Source of the DNA: Syntrophomonadaceae bacterium
Lineage (GTDB): Bacteria; Bacillota; Dethiobacteria; DTU022
DNA: 37,323 bases
Assembly: GCA_007128625.1 (NCBI GenBank)
Contig: SKXC01000009.1
Coordinates: forward strand, 1 to 37,323
Direction of reading: 5' to 3'
In this document: positions 1-26,205 of the stretch, piece after piece
How the letters are laid out: every line of letters starts with the position of its first letter
Position numbering within the stretch: position 1 is the first letter of the stretch
Notes under the pieces: model-generated
What the model was told of the DNA's origin: nothing
The model's input: the letters and a program-made list of their open reading frames with translations, nothing else
Databases searched by the model: none
Position numbers and translations under genes: made by a program

Positions 1-3000
1 ATGAACTATAAGGCACCACGGGGAACACGCGATATATTACCTGATGAAGCAAAAAGATGGAGATATCTTGAATCAAACTTCCAAAGGTATTGCGATCTCT
101 ACGGTTTTGGCGAAATTCGCACCCCTGTATTTGAGCAAACGGAGCTTTTTGCCCGCAGCGTCGGAGAAGATAGCGATATAGTATCCAAGGAGATGTATTC
201 GTTTAAGGATCGCAGCGGGCGTGAACTGACCCTGCGTCCCGAACTGACCGCTGCCGTGGCCCGGGCTTATCTTGAACATAATCTCGGTGAAAAACCCCAG
301 CCAATTAAACTGTATTACAGTGGTCCCATGTTTCGTTACGATCGGCCCCAGGCCGGACGCTATCGTCAATTTCATCAGTTTGGCCTTGAAACCTTTGGTG
401 CAGACCATGCTGCGGCCGATGTTGAAATAATCACTTTTTGCTATAATTTCTTTAAATCACTGCAGATCGAAAGCTTATCAATAGAGTTAAACAGTGTTGG
501 TTGTCCGGTTTGCCGTCCCGGTTTCCGTGAAAAACTGTTGCCCTTTTTGGAAAAACTGGAACAAGGACTGTGTGAAGATTGCCAGAGGCGTTATAAGAGC
601 AATCCGATGCGGGTTCTCGACTGTAAAGAAGAAAGCTGCCAGGTTCAGGTTGCCGGTGCGCCTCGGATGATCGATCATTTATGCGCCGGTTGTGAAGAAA
701 GCTTTACCAGGCTTAAAGAACTGCTTACCAGCCTGCAGGTGCCTTATAACCTGAATACTAACCTTGTTCGCGGTCTGGACTATTATACCCGCACAGCATT
801 TGAAATTACGGCCGGTGCTTCGGGAGCACAGGCTTCATTATGCGGAGGGGGACGTTATGATCACCTGGTTGAACACATTGGCGGTCCTCATGTGCCCGGT
901 GTTGGAGTGGCCTTTGGGGTGGAAAGAATTATGCTGGCCATGGATTGGAGCAAGGCGCTGCCTGAAGTACAGCCTCCTGTTTTTATTGCTACTGCCGGCA
1001 GTGGATTGGAAGAAGAAGCCCTGGTTTTGGCTGATCATTTAAGAAAAAACCAGGTGGCTGCTGAAATAGATTTGCTGCAAAGAAGCCTTAAAGCCCAGAT
1101 GAAATACACCGGCCGGCAGGGTTTCAAGCTGGTTGTAATTATTGGCGAAGATGAAATCAAGAAGGACATTATAACCCTGCGCAACATGGAAAACGGTGAG
1201 CAAAAAGAAATGTCCCGAGAAGTTCTAATAAAAGAACTGGCCGGTTGTAACAGTGAATCAGTGAAATTAATTAATAGCGGCAGTCCGGAAGCTAAAGCAG
1301 AAGTATTGTTACCCAATGGAATAGATTTCACCCAAAAGACCCACTACTGTGGTGCAGTTACATCTGAACAGGTAAATCAAAACATAAAGCTTACCGGCTG
1401 GGTGGGCAAGCGCCGTGATCATGGAGGGTTGATTTTTATCGATTTACGTGATCGCAGCGGTTTAATACAGCTGGTTTTTGATCAGCGGCAGGGGATTGAA
1501 CTATTTAACCTGGCCGAGAGTTTGCGCAGTGAATATGTTGTGGCTGTTGAAGGAGAGGTCCTGAGGCGATCCGAAGAAACCATAAACCGTTCCCTGCCGA
1601 CCGGTGAGGTTGAAGTACAGGTCAGCAAAATGAAAATATTAAACACTTCTAAAACCCCTCCTTTCTATATTGAAGATAACATCAACGTTGATGAAAATTT
1701 GCGTTTACGCTACCGCTATCTTGATTTAAGACGCCCGGAAATGCTCAAGCGCCTCCAGGTGCGCCACCGGGCAGTAAAGCTGCTCCGTGATTACATGGAC
1801 CGTTTTGACTTTCTGGAGGTTGAAACTCCGATGCTGACCCGCAGCACGCCGGAAGGAGCCAGGGATTTTCTGGTGCCCAGCCGCATGCACAGCGGTTCAT
1901 TTTATGCCCTTCCCCAGTCTCCTCAGATTTTCAAACAGCTGCTTATGGTCAGCGGACTTGAGCGCTATTTTCAAATTGCCCGCTGTTTTCGCGATGAAGA
2001 TCTGAGAGCTGACCGGCAACCGGAATTTACCCAGGTTGATATTGAAACTTCATTTTTCTGCACAGATGATCTTTTTGCTCTTACCGAGGGTCTGATTGCT
2101 GAGCTTTGGAAAGAGTTCTTTGGTGTTGAAATTAATAAGCCTTTTATTAGAATCCCCTACAGGGATGTTATGAACCGGTTTGGGACAGACAAGCCTGATT
2201 TACGCTACGGCCTTGAACTGGTTGATCTTAATGATTTAGCTCAAAAAAGCGAATTTAAGGTATTTAAGACTGCGCTGGAAGGCGGCGGGACAGTAAAAGG
2301 CTTGCGGGTACCCGGTGGAAAAAGCCTGAGCCGCAAAGATCTGGATGATCTTACTTTGCGGGCCCGTCAGCTGGGAGCAAAGGGCCTGGCCTGGACATTT
2401 GTTGAAGAAGACGGATGGCGCTCACCGATTAGCAAATTTTTCGATCAGTCACTGATTGAAGCTATCAACAGCAGAATGGAAGCTGAATCCGGAGATGTTT
2501 TGCTTTTTGTGGCTGACAGCTGGGAGACAACCTGCCAGGTTCTGGGCAGTTTACGCAGTTATTTTGCCCCTCAGGGGCTTTCTATAAAACCTCATTTCCT
2601 CTGGGTGGTTGATTTTCCATTATTTTACTTTAACAGGGAAGAACAGCGTTATGATTCAAATCATCACCCCTTCACAGCACCCAGGGTTGAAGATATGAAT
2701 CTGCTGGAAAGCGATCCGCTTGCTGTGAGATCCCAGGCTTACGATCTGGTTCTTAACGGCGTGGAAATTGGTGGTGGAAGCATGCGTATTCACGACAGTG
2801 CCACCCAGGCCAGGATATTTCAGAAGCTCGGGTTATCGGAAGAAGAAAGCAATGAAAAATTTGGGTTTTTACTTGAAGCCCTTTCCTACGGAACTCCGCC
2901 GCATGGTGGGATTGCTCTTGGTCTCGATCGCCTGGTGGCCTTGTTAACCGGGGATGAATCGATCAGGCAGGTTATTCCCTTTCCCAAAACAGCAACGGCA

Positions 3001-3093
3001 AACTGCCTGATGACCGGTGCGCCTTCTGCTGTATCCACAAAGCAGTTGGATGAATTAAAAATCAAGTTGCAGACGGACAATGATAAAGAATAG
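1..3093 (+). CDS. hisS-aspS: Fused histidine--tRNA ligase / aspartate--tRNA ligase (HisS aa ~1-415, linker, AspS aa ~446-1030)
   Basis: HisRS motifs APRGTRD, TLRPELTA, FRYDRPQAGRYRQFHQ, LVRGLDYY, GGGRYD plus anticodon domain; then AspRS motifs THYCG, RRDHGGLIFIDLRD, RLRYRYLDLRR, STPEGARDFLVPSR, CFRDEDLRADRQPEFTQ, PPHGGIALGLDR in a single open frame. Confidence 0.95.
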   Translation: MNYKAPRGTRDILPDEAKRWRYLESNFQRYCDLYGFGEIRTPVFEQTELFARSVGEDSDIVSKEMYSFKDRSGRELTLRPELTAAVARAYLEHNLGEKPQPIKLYYSGPMFRYDRPQAGRYRQFHQFGLETFGADHAAADVEIITFCYNFFKSLQIESLSIELNSVGCPVCRPGFREKLLPFLEKLEQGLCEDCQRRYKSNPMRVLDCKEESCQVQVAGAPRMIDHLCAGCEESFTRLKELLTSLQVPYNLNTNLVRGLDYYTRTAFEITAGASGAQASLCGGGRYDHLVEHIGGPHVPGVGVAFGVERIMLAMDWSKALPEVQPPVFIATAGSGLEEEALVLADHLRKNQVAAEIDLLQRSLKAQMKYTGRQGFKLVVIIGEDEIKKDIITLRNMENGEQKEMSREVLIKELAGCNSESVKLINSGSPEAKAEVLLPNGIDFTQKTHYCGAVTSEQVNQNIKLTGWVGKRRDHGGLIFIDLRDRSGLIQLVFDQRQGIELFNLAESLRSEYVVAVEGEVLRRSEETINRSLPTGEVEVQVSKMKILNTSKTPPFYIEDNINVDENLRLRYRYLDLRRPEMLKRLQVRHRAVKLLRDYMDRFDFLEVETPMLTRSTPEGARDFLVPSRMHSGSFYALPQSPQIFKQLLMVSGLERYFQIARCFRDEDLRADRQPEFTQVDIETSFFCTDDLFALTEGLIAELWKEFFGVEINKPFIRIPYRDVMNRFGTDKPDLRYGLELVDLNDLAQKSEFKVFKTALEGGGTVKGLRVPGGKSLSRKDLDDLTLRARQLGAKGLAWTFVEEDGWRSPISKFFDQSLIEAINSRMEAESGDVLLFVADSWETTCQVLGSLRSYFAPQGLSIKPHFLWVVDFPLFYFNREEQRYDSNHHPFTAPRVEDMNLLESDPLAVRSQAYDLVLNGVEIGGGSMRIHDSATQARIFQKLGLSEEESNEKFGFLLEALSYGTPPHGGIALGLDRLVALLTGDESIRQVIPFPKTATANCLMTGAPSAVSTKQLDELKIKLQTDNDKE

Positions 3094-18942: not shown

Positions 18943-18979
18943 AAACTATCAGCAGAAATAATTTAAAGGAGCAGTGCAG

Positions 18980-20902
18980 ATGCCTGACAGCCTGACTTAC
19001 AAAATTCTTAAAGAACACCTGGTCAATGGTAAATTAAAAAAAGGCAGCGAGATTGGCCTCCGGATTGATCAAACCCTGACCCAGGATGCTACCGGAACCA
19101 TGGCCTACCTGCAGTTTGAAGCGCTTGGCGTAGAAAGAGTACAAACTGAACTGTCGGTCAGCTATGTTGATCATAACACCTTGCAGAACGGTTTTGAAAA
19201 TGCTGATGATCATCGCTATCTTCAAACTGCTGCTGCCAGGTTCGGGGCCTGGTTTTCAAGGCCGGGCAACGGTATTTGCCACCAGGTGCACTTGGAACGC
19301 TTTGGGATTCCAGGCAAAACCCTGCTGGGTGCAGACAGCCATACCCCCACTGCCGGCGGCATTGGAATGCTGGGAATCGGTTCAGGTGGCCTTGATGTGG
19401 CCGTGGCCATGGCAGGCGGTCCTTACTACCTTATAGTGCCGGAAGTTACTAAAGTTTATTTGAAAGGTAAACTGCCGCCGTGGGTAGGGGCAAAGGATAT
19501 TATCCTGGAAGTGCTTCGCCGCCTGTCGGTTAAAGGCGGCCTGGGTCAAATAATGGAATATGCCGGTCCGGGATTAGAAAACCTATCTGTTCCGGAAAGG
19601 GCTACTGTTACCAACATGGGTGCCGAGCTGGGGGCCACATCGTCAGTTTTTCCCAGCGATACAGAAACTAAAAAGTTTTTGGCAAGCCAGGGGCGAGAAG
19701 AAGCCTGGAGGCCGCTGACAGCTGATCCCGGTGCAGTTTATGACCACGAAATTACTGTAGATCTGGACAAACTGGAACCGTTGATTGCTGCGCCGCACAG
19801 TCCCGATGCAGTCAGGACAGTTAAAGAAATTGGATCGCTTCCTGTTGACCAGGTTGCTGTGGGCAGCTGCACGAATGGTTCATACAGTGATCTAAGACTT
19901 TTAGCGGAAATAATGAAAGGTAAAGTGGTCCACCCGAGGGTAAGCCTGGTAGTTTCTCCCGGTTCGCGGCAGGTAAGCATAACCCTGGCCCGGGAAGGGA
20001 TTTTAGAAAGCCTGCTGGCCTCCGGGGCGCGAATTCTTGAATCGGCCTGTGGTCCCTGTATAGGTATGGGACAGGCGCCGCCGACAGAAGGAGTTTCGGT
20101 GCGTACTTTTAACCGTAATTTTGCCGGACGCAGCGGGACAGCTGATGCCCGGGTCTATTTATCCGGCCCTGCGGTGGCGGCAGCAGCGGCTTTAAAGGGC
20201 CTTATAAGCGATCCCCGTGAAATGGGCGATTATCCCGTTTTAGCCGACCCGCCTCCACCGGTTGTTGATGACCGGATGCTAATTGCTCCACCGGCTGATG
20301 GAAAAAAAGTAGAAATAATCCGCGGCCCGAATATCAAACCTTTAACCCTTAACCGGCCGCTGCCCCAAAAAATCAGGGTTAATGTATTAATCGTTGTTGA
20401 AGATAATATTACTACAGATCATATCATACCCGGTGGATCAAAAGTTCTGCCGCTAAGGTCAAATATTGAAGCGCTGAGTAAACATGTTTTTTCTTCCCTC
20501 GCTCCGGATTTTTCGGATCGGGCCGGTCAATATGAAGGTGGTTTGATCGTAGCCGGAGAAAATTACGGCCAGGGTTCAAGCCGGGAACATGCCGCCCTTG
20601 CCCCGATGCATTTAGGGATTAAAGCTGTCCTGGCCAAATCATTTGCCCGTATACACCGGGCCAACCTTGTTAACTTTGGTATCCTGCCTTTGTTTTTTTG
20701 TGATCCATCTGATTATGAACAGTTATCCACCGGGGACGAACTGGCCACAGACAATGTTCATGAACAGCTGGACAAAGATAAGATTTATCTCCGGCGGATT
20801 AATGATGGTTTCCAGTTTGCTGCTAATCATCACCTCTCAGTGAGGCAAATAGAAATTCTTAAAGCGGGGGGGTTGCTCAATTATACCCGCCGCTCATTTT
20901 AA
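18980..20902 (+). CDS. Aconitate hydratase (single-chain ~640-aa type)
   Basis: TQDATGT, DHN, GICHQ, GADSHT, GSCTN, ACGPCIG, TTDHI, NYGQGSSREHA; ATG 18980 is 8 nt after GGAG. Confidence 0.93.
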   Translation: MPDSLTYKILKEHLVNGKLKKGSEIGLRIDQTLTQDATGTMAYLQFEALGVERVQTELSVSYVDHNTLQNGFENADDHRYLQTAAARFGAWFSRPGNGICHQVHLERFGIPGKTLLGADSHTPTAGGIGMLGIGSGGLDVAVAMAGGPYYLIVPEVTKVYLKGKLPPWVGAKDIILEVLRRLSVKGGLGQIMEYAGPGLENLSVPERATVTNMGAELGATSSVFPSDTETKKFLASQGREEAWRPLTADPGAVYDHEITVDLDKLEPLIAAPHSPDAVRTVKEIGSLPVDQVAVGSCTNGSYSDLRLLAEIMKGKVVHPRVSLVVSPGSRQVSITLAREGILESLLASGARILESACGPCIGMGQAPPTEGVSVRTFNRNFAGRSGTADARVYLSGPAVAAAAALKGLISDPREMGDYPVLADPPPPVVDDRMLIAPPADGKKVEIIRGPNIKPLTLNRPLPQKIRVNVLIVVEDNITTDHIIPGGSKVLPLRSNIEALSKHVFSSLAPDFSDRAGQYEGGLIVAGENYGQGSSREHAALAPMHLGIKAVLAKSFARIHRANLVNFGILPLFFCDPSDYEQLSTGDELATDNVHEQLDKDKIYLRRINDGFQFAANHHLSVRQIEILKAGGLLNYTRRSF

Positions 20903-20950
20903 GCCCTGCCGTATTAAGCGAATATTATTTAAAGGAGCATGCCATAGGTT

Positions 20951-22126
20951 ATGAAACATTTTCAAGAAGCACTTAAAAAAAATTTACCCATACTGGTTGA
21001 TACAACTCTGCGGGACGGTGAACAAACTGCCGGTGTAGTATTTTCGAACCAGGAAAAATTGCGTATAGGTAAAATGCTCAACAACCTGGGCATACATCAG
21101 ATCGAAGCCGGTGTTCCGGTTATGGGTGGCGATGAAAAAGAATATATCAAGGAGCTCGTTTCTTATAACCTGCCGGCCAGCATCATGGCCTGGAACCGGG
21201 TTAACATTGAGGATATTAAGCATTCTTTAGACTGTTGCGTTGATGCAGTGGCAATTTCTGTTTCCACCTCGGACATACATATAAACCACAAACTGCAAAC
21301 TTCCCGGGAATGGGTCCTGGAAAAGATGGCCAGGGCAGTGGAATTTGCCAAAAACCACGATTTATATATATCGGTTAATGCCGAGGATGCCTCACGCAGT
21401 GATATGGATTTTCTGATAAAGTTTGCCCAGCAGGCTCGTTCAGCCGGGGCAGACCGACTTAGATTTTGTGACACGATCGGCGTTTTGGAACCTTTCAAGA
21501 CTTATGATATTATCAGTGAACTAATTGACAAAACCGGCATGGATATTGAGATGCACACCCATAACGATTTCGGTATGGCTACAGCCAATGCCCTGGCCGG
21601 ATTAAAAGCCGGTGCCCGTTTTGTCGGGGTAACCGTTAACGGCCTTGGTGAAAGGGCGGGCAATGCTGCCCTGGAAGAAGTTGCCATGGCTCTCAAGTAC
21701 TTATTTGGGGTAGATTTAAAAGTTAATACCCGGGATTTTCGCAACCTCTGTGAATATGTAGCCCATGCTTCCGGCCGCCAGTTATACCCGTCAAAACCTA
21801 TTGTAGGCACCAATACATTCGCCCATGAGTCCGGGATTCACGCAGACGGTGTTCTTAAACACCCCCCGACTTACGAAGTATACAGTCCTGATGAGGTAGG
21901 TCTGGAAAGACAGATCGTTATTGGCAAATATTCCGGATCAAAGGCGATCAAAATGAAATTTGTCGAATACGGAATTGATCTTTCCGATGAAGAAGCGGCC
22001 GATCTGCGGGATGCTGTAAGGAATATGACTGTGGATTTGAAGCGTTCTCTTTTTGACAAAGAGATAATGTATATTTATGAAGATTACCTGTACGAAAAAA
22101 AGAAAGTTCTGGCAAAGGAAGAATAA
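20951..22126 (+). CDS. DRE-TIM acetyl-CoA condensing enzyme, homocitrate synthase NifV/AksA-like (candidate Re-citrate synthase)
   Basis: DTTLRDGEQ, HTHNDFGMA, GLGERAGNAALEE, HESGIH; 391 aa, no LeuA regulatory domain. Confidence 0.85.
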   Translation: MKHFQEALKKNLPILVDTTLRDGEQTAGVVFSNQEKLRIGKMLNNLGIHQIEAGVPVMGGDEKEYIKELVSYNLPASIMAWNRVNIEDIKHSLDCCVDAVAISVSTSDIHINHKLQTSREWVLEKMARAVEFAKNHDLYISVNAEDASRSDMDFLIKFAQQARSAGADRLRFCDTIGVLEPFKTYDIISELIDKTGMDIEMHTHNDFGMATANALAGLKAGARFVGVTVNGLGERAGNAALEEVAMALKYLFGVDLKVNTRDFRNLCEYVAHASGRQLYPSKPIVGTNTFAHESGIHADGVLKHPPTYEVYSPDEVGLERQIVIGKYSGSKAIKMKFVEYGIDLSDEEAADLRDAVRNMTVDLKRSLFDKEIMYIYEDYLYEKKKVLAKEE

Positions 22127-22154
22127 TTTTTTTTAAGAAAATACTTAACAGCCC

Positions 22155-22206
22155 TTTACATACAATATATTGTGGTCTATAATAAAGAAAATCCAATATA
22201 TTGATG
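22155..22206 (+). promoter_or_regulatory. Sigma-A promoter with two NrdR boxes
   Basis: TTTACA (22155)-17 bp-TATAAT (22178); ATACAATATATTGTGG (22160-22175) and ATCCAATATATTGATG (22191-22206), 31 bp apart, match the NrdR-box consensus acaCwAtATaTwGtgt. Confidence 0.88.
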
Positions 22207-22219
22207 GGAGAGCCTAAAT

Positions 22220-22702
22220 ATGAAGTGCCCATACTGCGGTGAGATAGATACCAGGGTGCTTGATTCTCGTTCCACCCAGGATTCTTCGGCAATCAGGCGG
22301 CGGCGCCAGTGTGTCAAATGTTCCAACCGTTTTACCACCATGGAAAAAACTGAAGAAGAACCTCTTGTTGTAATCAAGCGCGATGGGCGCAGAGAACTTT
22401 TCGATCCGGGCAAAATCATTAAGGGCCTGGTCCTGGCCGGCCAAAAACGCAATATACCGCTTTCTCTGTGGGAAGAACTGGTTGAAAGCCTTGAACAGGA
22501 TCTGCGCAGCAGCTATATTAAAGAAGTTTCCGCCGATCAAATTGGCGCTACACTTCTAAAGCGTCTGCGCGGCATCGATGAAATTGCCTATGTCCGCTTT
22601 GCCTCTGTTTTTCATAAATTTTCGGATGTGGAAGAATTTAAAAACGAACTGGAAGACATGCTTCGTGAAAAAGAGCAGCTAAAAAAACAAGGGAGGGTAT
22701 AA
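22220..22702 (+). CDS. nrdR: Transcriptional repressor NrdR
   Basis: MKCPYC...VLDSR...IRRRRQC..C..RFTT, ATP cone, AYVRFASV. Confidence 0.98.
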   Translation: MKCPYCGEIDTRVLDSRSTQDSSAIRRRRQCVKCSNRFTTMEKTEEEPLVVIKRDGRRELFDPGKIIKGLVLAGQKRNIPLSLWEELVESLEQDLRSSYIKEVSADQIGATLLKRLRGIDEIAYVRFASVFHKFSDVEEFKNELEDMLREKEQLKKQGRV

Positions 22703-22704
22703 TT

Positions 22705-24795
22705 TTGAAAAACAGCAATGCTCAGGTTGAAACTGAAAATGATCTTTCAACAGGAGTAACTTTTAAAGAAATTCGCAAACGCGACGGCCGGGTTGTTGAT
22801 TTTGATCCTGGGAAAATTACCGATGCCATTTTTAAAGCAGCGAAAGCAGTGGGCGGGCACGATCGCGGCATTGCTGAAAACCTGACCGGGCAGGTGATCA
22901 AAAATTTACAGCAGAAGGTCCATAATGCGGTCATACCTTCCGTGGAAGAAGTTCAGGACGAAGTGGAGGTAGCCCTGATTGAAAACGGTCATGCCCGTAC
23001 TGCCAAGGCCTACATCCTTTATCGTGATCGCCGTACCCGGATTCGGGACGGAAAATCTGAGCTTATGGACGTGGTTAAAGAAATCCTGGTTGAAACCAGC
23101 CGGGAAAACGCAAATGTCAGTAATTCTCCCTCGGCTAAAATGCTCCAAATTGCCATGGCTGCCAGTAAAAAGTATTATTTAAGTAATTTGCTGCCTGAAG
23201 AATATGCCCGTGCTCATGATGAAGGTGTCTTTCATATTCATGATCTTGACTATTACAGTAAAACTTTAAACTGTTTGCAAATAGATCTTTCCAGCCTGCT
23301 AAGGGAAGGATTCAATACCGGTTACGGTTATATTCGTCCGCCAAAGCGAATTGCTTCTGCCGTGGCCCAGGCGGCTATTATCCTGCAAAGCAACCAGAAT
23401 GACATGTTTGGCGGTCAGAGCTTCCCTCATTTTGACCGTAGTATGGGGGAAGTCATCCGCGGTCTTAAAAAGCAGCCCGATTACGATGAAATATACCAGG
23501 CCATGGAGGGGTTAATCTACAATTTAAATACCATGCATAGTCGGGCCGGGGCCCAGGTGCCATTTAGTTCACTAAATTTTGGTACCGATATGACTGATCA
23601 GGGGCGTATGGTTTCACAGGCCATTTTAGAGGCTTTCAAACGAGGCCTGGGTCATGGAGAAAGCCCGATTTTCCCCAACCTGGTTTTTAGGATTAAGGAA
23701 GGAGTAAATTTTAATCCTGAAGATCCGAATTATGATCTTTACCGCCTGGCCCTGCAGGTGTCTTCACGCCGGATGAATCCTACTTTTAGCTTCATGGACA
23801 GTTCATTTAACCGGGATTATGGTGATGAAGTGTCTTACATGGGCTGCAGAACCCGGGTTATCGCCAACCGGCATGGAGCCGAGGTTTCGGCCGGAAGGGG
23901 TAATATTGCTCCCGTAACCCTTAACCTCCCCCGCCTGGCCCTGGAGTGCCGCGGCCGGCAGGACATATTTTTTGTTCAGCTTGATCGGCTGCTGCGCCTG
24001 GCTGCCCGCCAGCTTCTGCATCGCTTTGAAGTGCTGTCCCGTTTAAAAGTCCGTGACCTTCCTTTCCTGATGGGTCAGAAACTATATCTTGATTCAGACA
24101 AACTCGGTCCCGATGATTCTATCGGAGAAGTGATCAAGCACGGTACCCTGGCCATAGGTTTTATCGGGCTTGCAGAAACTGTTTATCTTCTGACCGGCAG
24201 GCATCACGGCGAAGATGATCAGGCTCTTGCCCTGGCCCTCAAGATCGTGGAACATATCCGCAAGCGCATTGACAGCTATGCCGATGAATACGATTTAAAC
24301 TTTGCCCTGGTTGCCACCCCGGCTGAAGGGTTGGCCGGAAGGTTTGTAACCATGGACCGTGAGCGCTACGGGACGATTCCCGGTGCAACTGATAAAGAAT
24401 ACTACAGCAATTCATTTCATATTCCGGTCTACTATACTATGTCCATATTCGAAAAAATTAAGGCCGAAGGCTGTTTCCACCGCTATTGTAATGCCGGACA
24501 TATTACTTACACTGAACTGGAAGCACCTCCGGACCATAATATCGAAGCTCTTGATCGCATTATCCGCCAGATGGCTGAGTCTGATGTCGGCTATGGCGGA
24601 ATTAACTATCCGCTTGACGAATGCCGGATTTGTTTTCACAGTGGAGTATTCAACAGTTCCTGTCCACGGTGCGGCAGTGATCAAATCAGGCACATTCGAC
24701 GGATCACCGGGTACCTGTCCACCGATGAAAGGTTTAATGAGGCCAAGTTAAATGAATTGAAGGATAGAAAGGCTCACTTTGTTTCCGGGGAGTGA
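22705..24795 (+). CDS. nrdD: Anaerobic (class III) ribonucleoside-triphosphate reductase
   Basis: N-terminal ATP cone, RENAN, HIHDLD, YMGCRT, CxxC..CxxC, glycyl radical loop RITGYL. Confidence 0.96.
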   Translation: MKNSNAQVETENDLSTGVTFKEIRKRDGRVVDFDPGKITDAIFKAAKAVGGHDRGIAENLTGQVIKNLQQKVHNAVIPSVEEVQDEVEVALIENGHARTAKAYILYRDRRTRIRDGKSELMDVVKEILVETSRENANVSNSPSAKMLQIAMAASKKYYLSNLLPEEYARAHDEGVFHIHDLDYYSKTLNCLQIDLSSLLREGFNTGYGYIRPPKRIASAVAQAAIILQSNQNDMFGGQSFPHFDRSMGEVIRGLKKQPDYDEIYQAMEGLIYNLNTMHSRAGAQVPFSSLNFGTDMTDQGRMVSQAILEAFKRGLGHGESPIFPNLVFRIKEGVNFNPEDPNYDLYRLALQVSSRRMNPTFSFMDSSFNRDYGDEVSYMGCRTRVIANRHGAEVSAGRGNIAPVTLNLPRLALECRGRQDIFFVQLDRLLRLAARQLLHRFEVLSRLKVRDLPFLMGQKLYLDSDKLGPDDSIGEVIKHGTLAIGFIGLAETVYLLTGRHHGEDDQALALALKIVEHIRKRIDSYADEYDLNFALVATPAEGLAGRFVTMDRERYGTIPGATDKEYYSNSFHIPVYYTMSIFEKIKAEGCFHRYCNAGHITYTELEAPPDHNIEALDRIIRQMAESDVGYGGINYPLDECRICFHSGVFNSSCPRCGSDQIRHIRRITGYLSTDERFNEAKLNELKDRKAHFVSGE

Positions 24796-24801
24796 AAAAT
24801 T

Positions 24802-25311
24802 ATTCTAAGGATAGCCGGTTTATATACAGATAGTATTGTTGATGGCCCCGGAATCCGTCTTTCTATTTATGTTCAGGGCTGTCCGCATTTATGCCCTGGC
24901 TGTCACAACCCGGATACACATGATCCCCGTGGCGGTTACGAACTCAGTCTGGAAGAACTGGTTGTTTTACTCGATCAGCACCACCGCACCATAGATGGTG
25001 TGACCATTTCAGGCGGAGAACCTTTTGAGCAGACTGCTCCACTTGCTGTCCTTGCTTCAGAAATAATAAACAGGAACCTGGACCTGGTTTTATACAGCGG
25101 CTATACTTTTGAAACACTCCTTTCAAAAAGTGATAATGACCGGGACACCTGCTTTCTTTTAGAAGCGGGTTGGCTGCTGGTAGATGGACCTTTTATGCAG
25201 AAAGAACTGGATCTTAGCCTTGCTTATCGTGGATCAAGGAATCAGCGTTTAATCGATTTGCCTGCCTCTTTAAAAATAAAGAGAGCTGTCCAATGGGCCG
25301 GAAATTTTTAA
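24802..25311 (+). CDS. nrdG: Anaerobic RNR activating enzyme (radical SAM); start uncertain, no canonical start codon
   Basis: Frame open from 24796: KIILRIAGLYTDSIVDGPGIRLSIYVQGCPHLCPGCHNP...GVTISGGEPF...LVDGPF...RGSRNQR; CxxxCxxC at 24880-24903. The ORF track start at 25000 lies after this motif. Confidence 0.9.
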   Translation: MLRIAGLYTDSIVDGPGIRLSIYVQGCPHLCPGCHNPDTHDPRGGYELSLEELVVLLDQHHRTIDGVTISGGEPFEQTAPLAVLASEIINRNLDLVLYSGYTFETLLSKSDNDRDTCFLLEAGWLLVDGPFMQKELDLSLAYRGSRNQRLIDLPASLKIKRAVQWAGNF

Positions 25312-25356
25312 AGGATCAAGCGGCTGATATTTGATAGGGGGAGAATAACTGAACAG

Positions 25357-26205
25357 GTGTCTGAAAAAGGTTTTAAATTGTATAAAGAAGGGGAGCCGGC
25401 TTACCTGAAGGCATCACTGCTTGCTGGAAATGGTTTTGTCGATCATGCTTTTTCCACTCGTCTTGGCGGCTGCAGTAAAGGTGCCTTTTCTTCCTTGAAC
25501 ACGGCTTTTCATGTCGGAGACAGCCGGGAAAATGTCCTGGAAAACAGGCGTATTTTTTTTAAGCAGTTTAACTACGATTACCGTTATATTATTTCTTCTG
25601 TCCAGGTTCATGGAACGGACCTAAAAGTTTTTGATCATAAGAATTGCGGTGAAGGAGCCCTGCCGTTTACGGCCCATGCCAGGTGCGATGCCCTGATTAC
25701 TGAAGAACCGGGACTGCCCCTGACGGCCTACTCTGCAGATTGCCTGCTGATCTATTTTGTATCATTGCAAAAAAGCCCCCTTGTTGCGATTGCCCATGCC
25801 GGTTGGCGGGGGACACTGGGAGGCATAGGAAAAAAAGTTGTTTCTTATTTAAAAGCTCATTTTTCTGTGCAGCCCGGACAGCTTCTTGTAGGACTGGGTC
25901 CGGCTGTTTGCAGGAATTGCTATATAGTTGATTATTATTTAGCTGATCAATTTAAAACTGCAGGGTGGGATGATCCCTCCTATCTTGAGCCGGCCGGCCA
26001 GGATCAGTGGAGCCTTGACCTGTCAGCAATCAATGCCGAACAACTTCTCCGGGCCGGTGTCAGGGCTGAAAATATGGCTTGCAACTATTGGTGCACCTCC
26101 TGTAACCCTGAACTATTTTACTCATATCGCCGGGAAAAAGGGATTACCGGGAGGATGATCGGTTTTATCTCCATAAATGATACAGGGCATAACGGCAGGA
26201 GGTAG
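25357..26205 (+). CDS. pgeF: PgeF/YfiH/YlmD family protein (purine nucleoside phosphorylase / peptidoglycan editing factor)
   Basis: FSTRLGG, QVHG, DALIT, ADC, AHAGWRG, YSYR. Confidence 0.94.
   Translation: MSEKGFKLYKEGEPAYLKASLLAGNGFVDHAFSTRLGGCSKGAFSSLNTAFHVGDSRENVLENRRIFFKQFNYDYRYIISSVQVHGTDLKVFDHKNCGEGALPFTAHARCDALITEEPGLPLTAYSADCLLIYFVSLQKSPLVAIAHAGWRGTLGGIGKKVVSYLKAHFSVQPGQLLVGLGPAVCRNCYIVDYYLADQFKTAGWDDPSYLEPAGQDQWSLDLSAINAEQLLRAGVRAENMACNYWCTSCNPELFYSYRREKGITGRMIGFISINDTGHNGRR

Follow-up and report, generated by a model that had tools for sequence, protein, structure and literature searches.

How is the activase of a class III ribonucleotide reductase translated when its gene offers no conventional start codon? 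The question is raised by a 37,323-nt stretch of DNA from a Syntrophomonadaceae bacterium (GenBank assembly GCA_007128625.1, contig SKXC01000009.1, positions 1 to 37,323), referred to here as the window, in which the reductase gene nrdD is followed by nrdG, the gene of the radical S-adenosylmethionine (SAM) activase. Coordinates are window positions on the forward (+) strand, and the source genome is termed G000. As judged from comparison of genomes, nrdG is probably translated from an AUU codon at 24802..24804 to give a normal 169-aa activase, a reading to which we assign a probability of about 85%.

The nrdD-nrdG junction

The nrdD gene (22705..24795, 696 aa, above cut-off for TIGR02487 and PRK07111) ends with TGA at 24793-24795, and the letters around the junction are TCC GGG GAG TGA AAA ATT ATT CTA AGG ATA GCC. 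The open stretch that follows, 24796-25311, comprises 171 codons in the same frame as nrdD, and its first in-frame ATG, GTG or TTG is the GTG at 25000, located 3' of the CxxxCxxC motif (24880-24903), which leaves no canonical in-frame start ahead of conserved essential coding sequence. The letters and the open reading frames here agree with an initial annotation of the window, which had described nrdG as lacking a canonical start, as lying in frame with the nrdD TGA and as having no ATG, GTG or TTG before 25000. The overlapping GTG at 24792, the five-A run at 24795-24799 and the ATT codons at 24799 and 24802 are also where it had placed them, and its lengths of 169 aa for initiation at ATT 24802 and 868 aa for an NrdD-NrdG fusion add up.

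The nrdG frame (24802..25311, 169 aa) matches the activase profile TIGR02491 with 121.5 bits (cut-off 126.1) and an E-value of 2.9e-35, residues 6-155 being aligned with profile positions 2-153 of 154, and no other match to this profile was found in the genome. Together with the CxxxCxxC motif and the adjoining nrdD, this match assigns the product to the NrdG activases, at a score just below the cut-off.

A missing start might simply reflect a homopolymer assembly error, or a recent insertion that left a decaying gene, as the initial annotation had also considered. The site is indeed a homopolymer seen through contigs rather than raw reads, and a second reductase encoded elsewhere in the genome could cover the loss of NrdG. 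Contigs of four sequencing runs dated 2012-2022 are nevertheless free of indels at the A5 run: those of runs X1, X4 (possibly the source sample) and X8 span 24400-25400 and one X10 contig covers 24400-24896, all of them differing by 2-3 substitutions and 0 indels, contigs being apt to hide rare variants. Populations 88-93% alike occur in runs X10 and X19, and one of ~93% (X19 record 13) crosses the junction without a gap; the junction type of the closest genome, G007 (NrdG 74% identical), was found again in one DNA run and one RNA run (X17 and X20). Decay is opposed by the frame, which is open and under protein-level purifying selection 5' of GTG 25000, since comparison with G007 gave a dN/dS of ~0.04 (dS 1.48, dN 0.059) over 40 codons, -25 to +14, counted from the first Cys of CxxxCxxC. 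Error or decay is thus highly improbable; the lack of a canonical start is real and, given the indel-free contigs, unlikely to stem from the assembly.

The AUU codon and its homologues in relatives

The proposed start codon stands behind an extended Shine-Dalgarno (SD) sequence, GGGGAGTGA (24787..24795), within which lie the stop codon of nrdD and, out of frame, GTG 24792, and which is a motif common to the sister clade described below. Its duplex with the 3' tail of the 16S rRNA, which we take to be the generic Bacillota one, is predicted at -10.7 kcal/mol, and neither GTG 24792 nor GTG 25000 is preceded by an SD (-2.2 and -1.6 kcal/mol). A TGA-extended SD precedes 155 canonical starts, at a spacing of 8-9 nt in 70 cases and of 5-6 nt in 9. 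ATT 24802 lies 8-9 nt from the SD core, the usual spacing of the organism, and ATT 24799 lies at 5-6 nt.

The start positions of relatives were compared by counting codons backwards from the first Cys of CxxxCxxC, which places ATT 24802 at codon -26. In total, 36 other family genomes were read at the junction, of 60 with a match, and in 35 of the 36 a canonical start precedes the first Cys by 22-50 codons; two loci with the N-terminus off the contig (L030 and L108) were dropped. The commonest arrangement, found in 27 loci, is a start at codon -27 that overlaps the nrdD stop as ATGA or GTGA and follows a weak SD (median -5.7 kcal/mol). Outside the family, a canonical start was present in all 79 scorable metagenome loci (a further one was truncated), all 80 named genome loci and all 26 loci of a phylum search, these sets overlapping one another. 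The metagenome and genome scans, which may exclude the records nearest to the window, returned no relative nearer than 67% identity.

In a tree of 41 sequences built from part of NrdD plus NrdG, G000 and G007 are sisters (ultrafast bootstrap, UFBoot, 100) within a clade that also holds G002, G010, G003, G014, G005 and G001 (UFBoot 99). Codon -26 is GTG in G002, G010, G003 and G014, ATG in G005, ATT in G000 and G007, and TGC in G001, so that the candidate is homologous to canonical starts in five sister-clade genomes and is conserved in the closest one. In G007 the nrdD stop is TAG, in a different frame from nrdG; the A run is absent, and the conserved position is not occupied by a canonical start. 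The stretch between the GTGA and codon -26 measures 5, 6, 7, 7, 7, 7 and 8 nt in seven genomes; because its length varies in single-nucleotide steps through all three frames, the corresponding AAAATT of G000 (24796..24801, 6 nt, including the A run and ATT 24799) is best read as a non-coding spacer. The embedded GTG is in frame in two of the seven (G002 and G005), whereas a start-capable codon occupies -26 in all seven, and their SD duplexes range from -10.7 to -19.4 kcal/mol as against the median of -5.7 kcal/mol in the 27 loci starting at -27.

Initiation at the upstream AUU 24799 to give 170 aa, or a split between both AUU codons, is very unlikely. This codon occupies -27, the usual start position of the family, and shares the SD with 24802, but its 5-6 nt spacing is the rarer one, and the homologous codon is GTT in G007 and GCT, ACT, ACC or GGC in the sister clade. 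The initial annotation had offered a near-cognate start at either ATT; 24802 is favoured by homology, spacing, selection and the infC comparison given below, and 24799 is disfavoured by spacing.

A third possibility is that translation starts or re-starts at GTG 24792 and shifts by +1 on the A run, or that RNA polymerase slips there. The GTGA overlap is the coupled start usual in the family, the SD-embedded GTG is in frame in G002 and G005, and one A fewer in G000 would give the 5-nt spacer of G005. However, GTG 24792 has no SD of its own and opens a frame of 13 codons, and in G010, G003 and G014, which all carry GTG at -26, the embedded GTG does not share the nrdG frame. Five-A runs are short for slippage. 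As G007 lacks the run and would need a different shift, neither the slippery sequence nor the shift direction is conserved, and recoding of this kind is most improbable. The initial annotation had added that relatives all reading GTG-AAA-ATT, with four A, would expose an error or a private mutation; the aligned relatives instead show spacers of 5-8 nt, and G007 has the ATT with no A run.

Readthrough of the UGA by tryptophan or selenocysteine (Sec), yielding an 868-aa NrdD-NrdG fusion, is the least probable proposal. The two frames are continuous across a single UGA followed by A, and G000 has a tRNA-Sec. Yet the nrdD stop is in frame with nrdG in only 1 of 36 family loci, which looks like chance, and G007, with a TAG in another frame, still has none of the canonical codons at the conserved position; readthrough, like a +1 shift, is therefore not a solution shared by the two sister genomes, both of which keep ATT at -26. 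The 45 nt after the UGA fold with -0.9 kcal/mol, compared with -14.9 to -16.1 kcal/mol at three selenoprotein-like UGAs of the genome, and a separate comparison of the sequence after the UGA gave z of -0.2, so no hairpin resembling a selenocysteine insertion sequence (SECIS) is seen; TGAA is found at the end of 101 of the 1447 called genes. Longer homologues were sought in a word-limited search, which is hence weak evidence of absence and returned 21 proteins among 352 candidates; four of these carry NrdD then NrdG (P0010, P0012, P0013 and P0014). These four might have favoured a fusion, but all come from single-contig records, they are 92-97% alike, and with no RITGY motif in the NrdD tail they look like frameshift artefacts.

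Proposed initiation at the AUU codon and its genomic setting

The infC gene of G000 provides a control within the same genome, as it shows AGGAGGTGA, an SD ending in TGA, then 6 nt and an ATT, the same layout as nrdG. Other near-cognate starts were sought by an orphan-SD test with out-of-frame controls on the 1342 complete coding frames of G000, a test that misses the nrdG of G007 itself. It replaced an ortholog scan for conserved sequence 5' of the first canonical codon, which had been swamped by antisense and shadow frames, and a coding-filtered version, which was still noisy as 5' untranslated regions are conserved at this distance. In total, 40 frames are without any SD-led canonical start; downstream of the strong orphan SDs of these frames, ATT, ATC, ATA or CTG was counted 19 times in frame and 1.5 times in the control frames. 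A second definition gave 22 in frame and 6 in the control (21 genes, 1.6%), and a stricter SD score gave 13 and 2. Among 20 candidates profiled, the family profile begins before the first canonical codon in 10, seven being uninformative and three without a family. The ten are ArgH, SurE, TsaB, an S1-domain protein, a geranylgeranyl-reductase-family protein, DUF2284, MnhB, a PyrK-like subunit, an MttB-family protein and a CoA-transferase (contigs C138, C137, C160, C124, C60, C39, C145, C35 and C100; L276-L295). Some starts are common to relatives, namely the ATA of the CoA-transferase in G012, the ATT of DUF2284 in G007 and an ATC or ATA of one gene of unassigned name. About 12-21 genes of G000 (0.9-1.6%), including nrdG and infC, thus appear to use SD-led ATT, ATC, ATA or CTG starts.

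The rate of 21/1342 in G000 was set beside 6/508 in part of G007 (0.65 of ~2.3 Mb), 4/768 in part of G012 (1.0 of ~2.1 Mb) and 1/261 in three phylum genomes (100 kb each). It is not distinguishable from that of the phylum sample, a small comparator (Fisher p 0.24), and the comparison with G012 gave p 0.036, uncorrected and between kin. It is conceivable, if rather unlikely, that near-cognate starts behind extended SDs on ~1-1.6% of genes in these soda-lake Bacillota form a tier sensitive to initiation factor 3 (IF3), comprising nrdG, infC, tsaB, argH, surE, the gene of the S1-domain protein, that of a Na+/H+ antiporter subunit and others, so that NrdG level and anaerobic deoxynucleoside triphosphate (dNTP) supply would follow initiation stringency or growth state.

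Several observations on decoding in this genome were made along the way. A CTG start of tsaB behind GGAGG appears in G000 (C140:1621-2346, +), G007 and G012 (L126 and L222). TTG makes up ~21% of SD-led canonical starts in G000 (254/1192), above GTG. Several selenoprotein-like in-frame TGAs occur beside the tRNA-Sec, and a frame on C29, presumably prfB, starts right after CTT-TGA in a manner resembling the prfB frameshift.

For nrdG, initiation at AUU 24802 may be pictured as follows. The 16S tail would pair with the extended SD GGGGAGTGA and place the AUU in the P site, where fMet-tRNA would read it weakly and IF3 would discriminate against it, allowing rare passage; the product would begin (M)LRIAGLYTDSIVDGPGIR. 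A weak hairpin is predicted at 24789..24806, pairing the SD with the start codon, whose unpaired probability of 0.025 is as low in 3% of 991 canonical starts. The ribosome ending nrdD stops inside the SD and might open this hairpin, which is the soft step of the scheme; the translation of the two genes would thereby be coupled, with nrdG output a fraction of that of nrdD. The start codon is predicted to be buried in G000 and G007 (0.03 and 0.02), compared with 0.34-0.72 in six sister-clade loci. A conserved regulatory hairpin was considered and rejected, as the two genomes form different hairpins with z of -0.4 and -0.55.

Historically, the start in one branch of the genus may have left the ATGA or GTGA overlap with its weak SD (codon -27) for codon -26, where the strong SD could then have tolerated ATT in the ancestor of G000 and G007. 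A low level of NrdG would presumably suffice, as NrdG acts transiently on NrdD, and it is plausible that the weak start keeps the activase scarce or substoichiometric. In one study, the available part of which was consulted, 4 uM NrdG was used for 10 uM NrdD dimer and 1.5 radicals per dimer were reported (PMC9176816). That the weak codon was selected rather than tolerated is a possibility we rate slightly below even: ATT survived a synonymous distance of ~1.5 between G000 and G007, and two genomes cannot separate selection from tolerance.

Several points weigh against initiation at AUU 24802 or against its selection. The anti-SD tail is assumed, the 16S 3' end not having been found in the G000 assembly; the hairpin does not exceed shuffled sequences in stability (z -0.4); and the ATT of infC is not forced, an in-frame TTG lying 4 codons downstream. 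ATT at -26 is present in two genomes only, and ATT or ATC at this position is a plain Ile-2 in relatives starting at -27 (L016, L021 and L122), so part of its conservation may be at the protein level. A poor fallback start might be available to G007 in an in-frame TTG at codon -20, which lies 25 nt past the SD and would remove ILRIAG from the product; G000 has TTA at this place. G001 (L014), with TGC at -26, has a TTG at -34 behind GGAGG inside nrdD; its start looks to have moved there in a compensatory relocation, which indicates that the start of the clade is labile. Finally, a second reductase with a class I/II catalytic domain (PF02867) was found in all five genomes searched and could relax the need for NrdG, which favours tolerance over selection.

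In G000 this second reductase is encoded by a 1107-aa frame at G000:C108:4738-8061 (+) and is probably of class II. It contains an insertion of ~330-360 aa ending in HN-C, which we take to be an intein motif, and the insertion is likely an intein; lengths are similar in G001, G002 and G007, and the G012 protein of 739 aa has no insertion.

The genes nrdR, nrdD, nrdG and pgeF are consecutive in this order, as identified by profile search. The 160-aa nrdR (22220..22702) scores above cut-off for TIGR00244, and upstream of nrdR-nrdD-nrdG lies a sigma-70-type promoter-like site, TTTACA-17-TATAAT (22155..22183), with 11/12 matches, the best of 11 sites in 21900-25600 by consensus match. Its spacer holds a palindrome resembling an NrdR box (22160..22174, putative in function), which has one mismatch to the consensus that we assume for this box. 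What we take to be the RITGY glycyl-radical motif of nrdD is found at 24700-24714, and a site scan found no terminator-like site at the nrdD-nrdG junction. RNA run X20 holds a 250-nt contig on nrdD of G000 in addition to its contig across the G007-type junction, such contigs showing neither strand nor level. The runs in which over half of the words sampled were present derive from metagenomes of salt lakes, soda lakes or alkali sediment.

Elsewhere in the window, an aconitase-family gene and a NifV-like gene of the homocitrate/isopropylmalate-synthase family lie between ftsZ and nrdR (18974-22126, +). A 1030-aa open reading frame at 1-3093 (+) joins a histidyl-tRNA synthetase (HisRS, residues 4-405) to an aspartyl-tRNA synthetase (AspRS, 445-1025). 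In each of the 13 further genus genomes that gave a match, among 14 searched, the frame is open across the junction, so the HisRS-AspRS fusion is real and genus-wide; no paper on it was found among the literature matches listed.

Significance and known systems

For gene annotation, callers limited to ATG, GTG and TTG would give a 103-aa NrdG without the iron-sulfur motif, making a working class III reductase look broken, and about a dozen other genes of G000 would be miscalled in the same way. If translation from AUU 24802 holds true, a weakly initiated gene for a catalytic activase, placed after that of its substrate, would be a simple means of setting the enzyme-to-activase ratio, and the history of the start could be traced from an overlap start through a GTG with a strong SD to ATT. 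No report of a non-canonical nrdG start or of an NrdD-NrdG fusion was found among the open-access literature matches listed. The nrdD-nrdG operons of relatives keep the same order, with nrdG starting at or near the nrdD stop, but use ATG, GTG or TTG.

SD-led AUU starts as such are already known, from infC, pcnB, ebpA and cvfC1, and the mechanism itself is not new. The AUU starts of E. coli infC and pcnB are cited in the consulted parts of two reports (bioRxiv 10.1101/063800, PMC13009471), and in E. coli reporters AUU gave ~1-2% of AUG output, according to the available part of the former (10.1101/063800). The start codon is the same as that proposed for nrdG, and infC of G000 repeats the nrdG layout, but the AUU of E. 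coli infC serves IF3 autoregulation, whereas nrdG has its ATT in two genomes only. For E. faecalis ebpA, the part of the source at hand places the true start at an ATT upstream of the annotated canonical codon, with lower output (PMC4447247). Like nrdG, ebpA is a Bacillota gene with an upstream ATT start; in contrast, it encodes a pilus tip protein and its start was tested by mutagenesis (PMC4447247, in part), whereas in nrdG the proposed SD takes in the stop codon of nrdD, which encodes the partner enzyme.

The closest parallel comes from S. aureus, for which the available portion of one report describes four non-canonical starts, in cvfC1 (AUU), ccpN and citZ (AUA) and infC (AUA), extended SDs being predicted for three and reporters for three giving ~10% of AUG output in poor medium (PMC13009471). 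As in nrdG, these Bacillota sites combine a near-cognate start with a strong, start-proximal extended SD, are conserved between relatives and are predicted to have lowered output. They were demonstrated by Ribo-Ret and reporters, whereas the nrdG start is deduced from genomes, and the four sites stand against ~12-21 candidates in 1342 frames of G000, counts obtained by different methods (PMC13009471, same portion). Unlike the S. aureus genes, nrdG encodes a radical-SAM activase, and its SD contains the stop of the upstream gene. Taken together, nrdG displays the three genomic features of SD-led AUU starts, namely no canonical in-frame start before essential coding sequence, a strong SD at the usual spacing and a codon whose counterparts in relatives are canonical starts or the same codon, and lacks the conserved in-frame stop and SECIS-like hairpin that define readthrough and the conserved slippery sequence and shift direction that define frameshifting. 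If initiation at AUU 24802 is correct, a ribonucleotide-reductase activase would join the short list of bacterial AUU-start genes.

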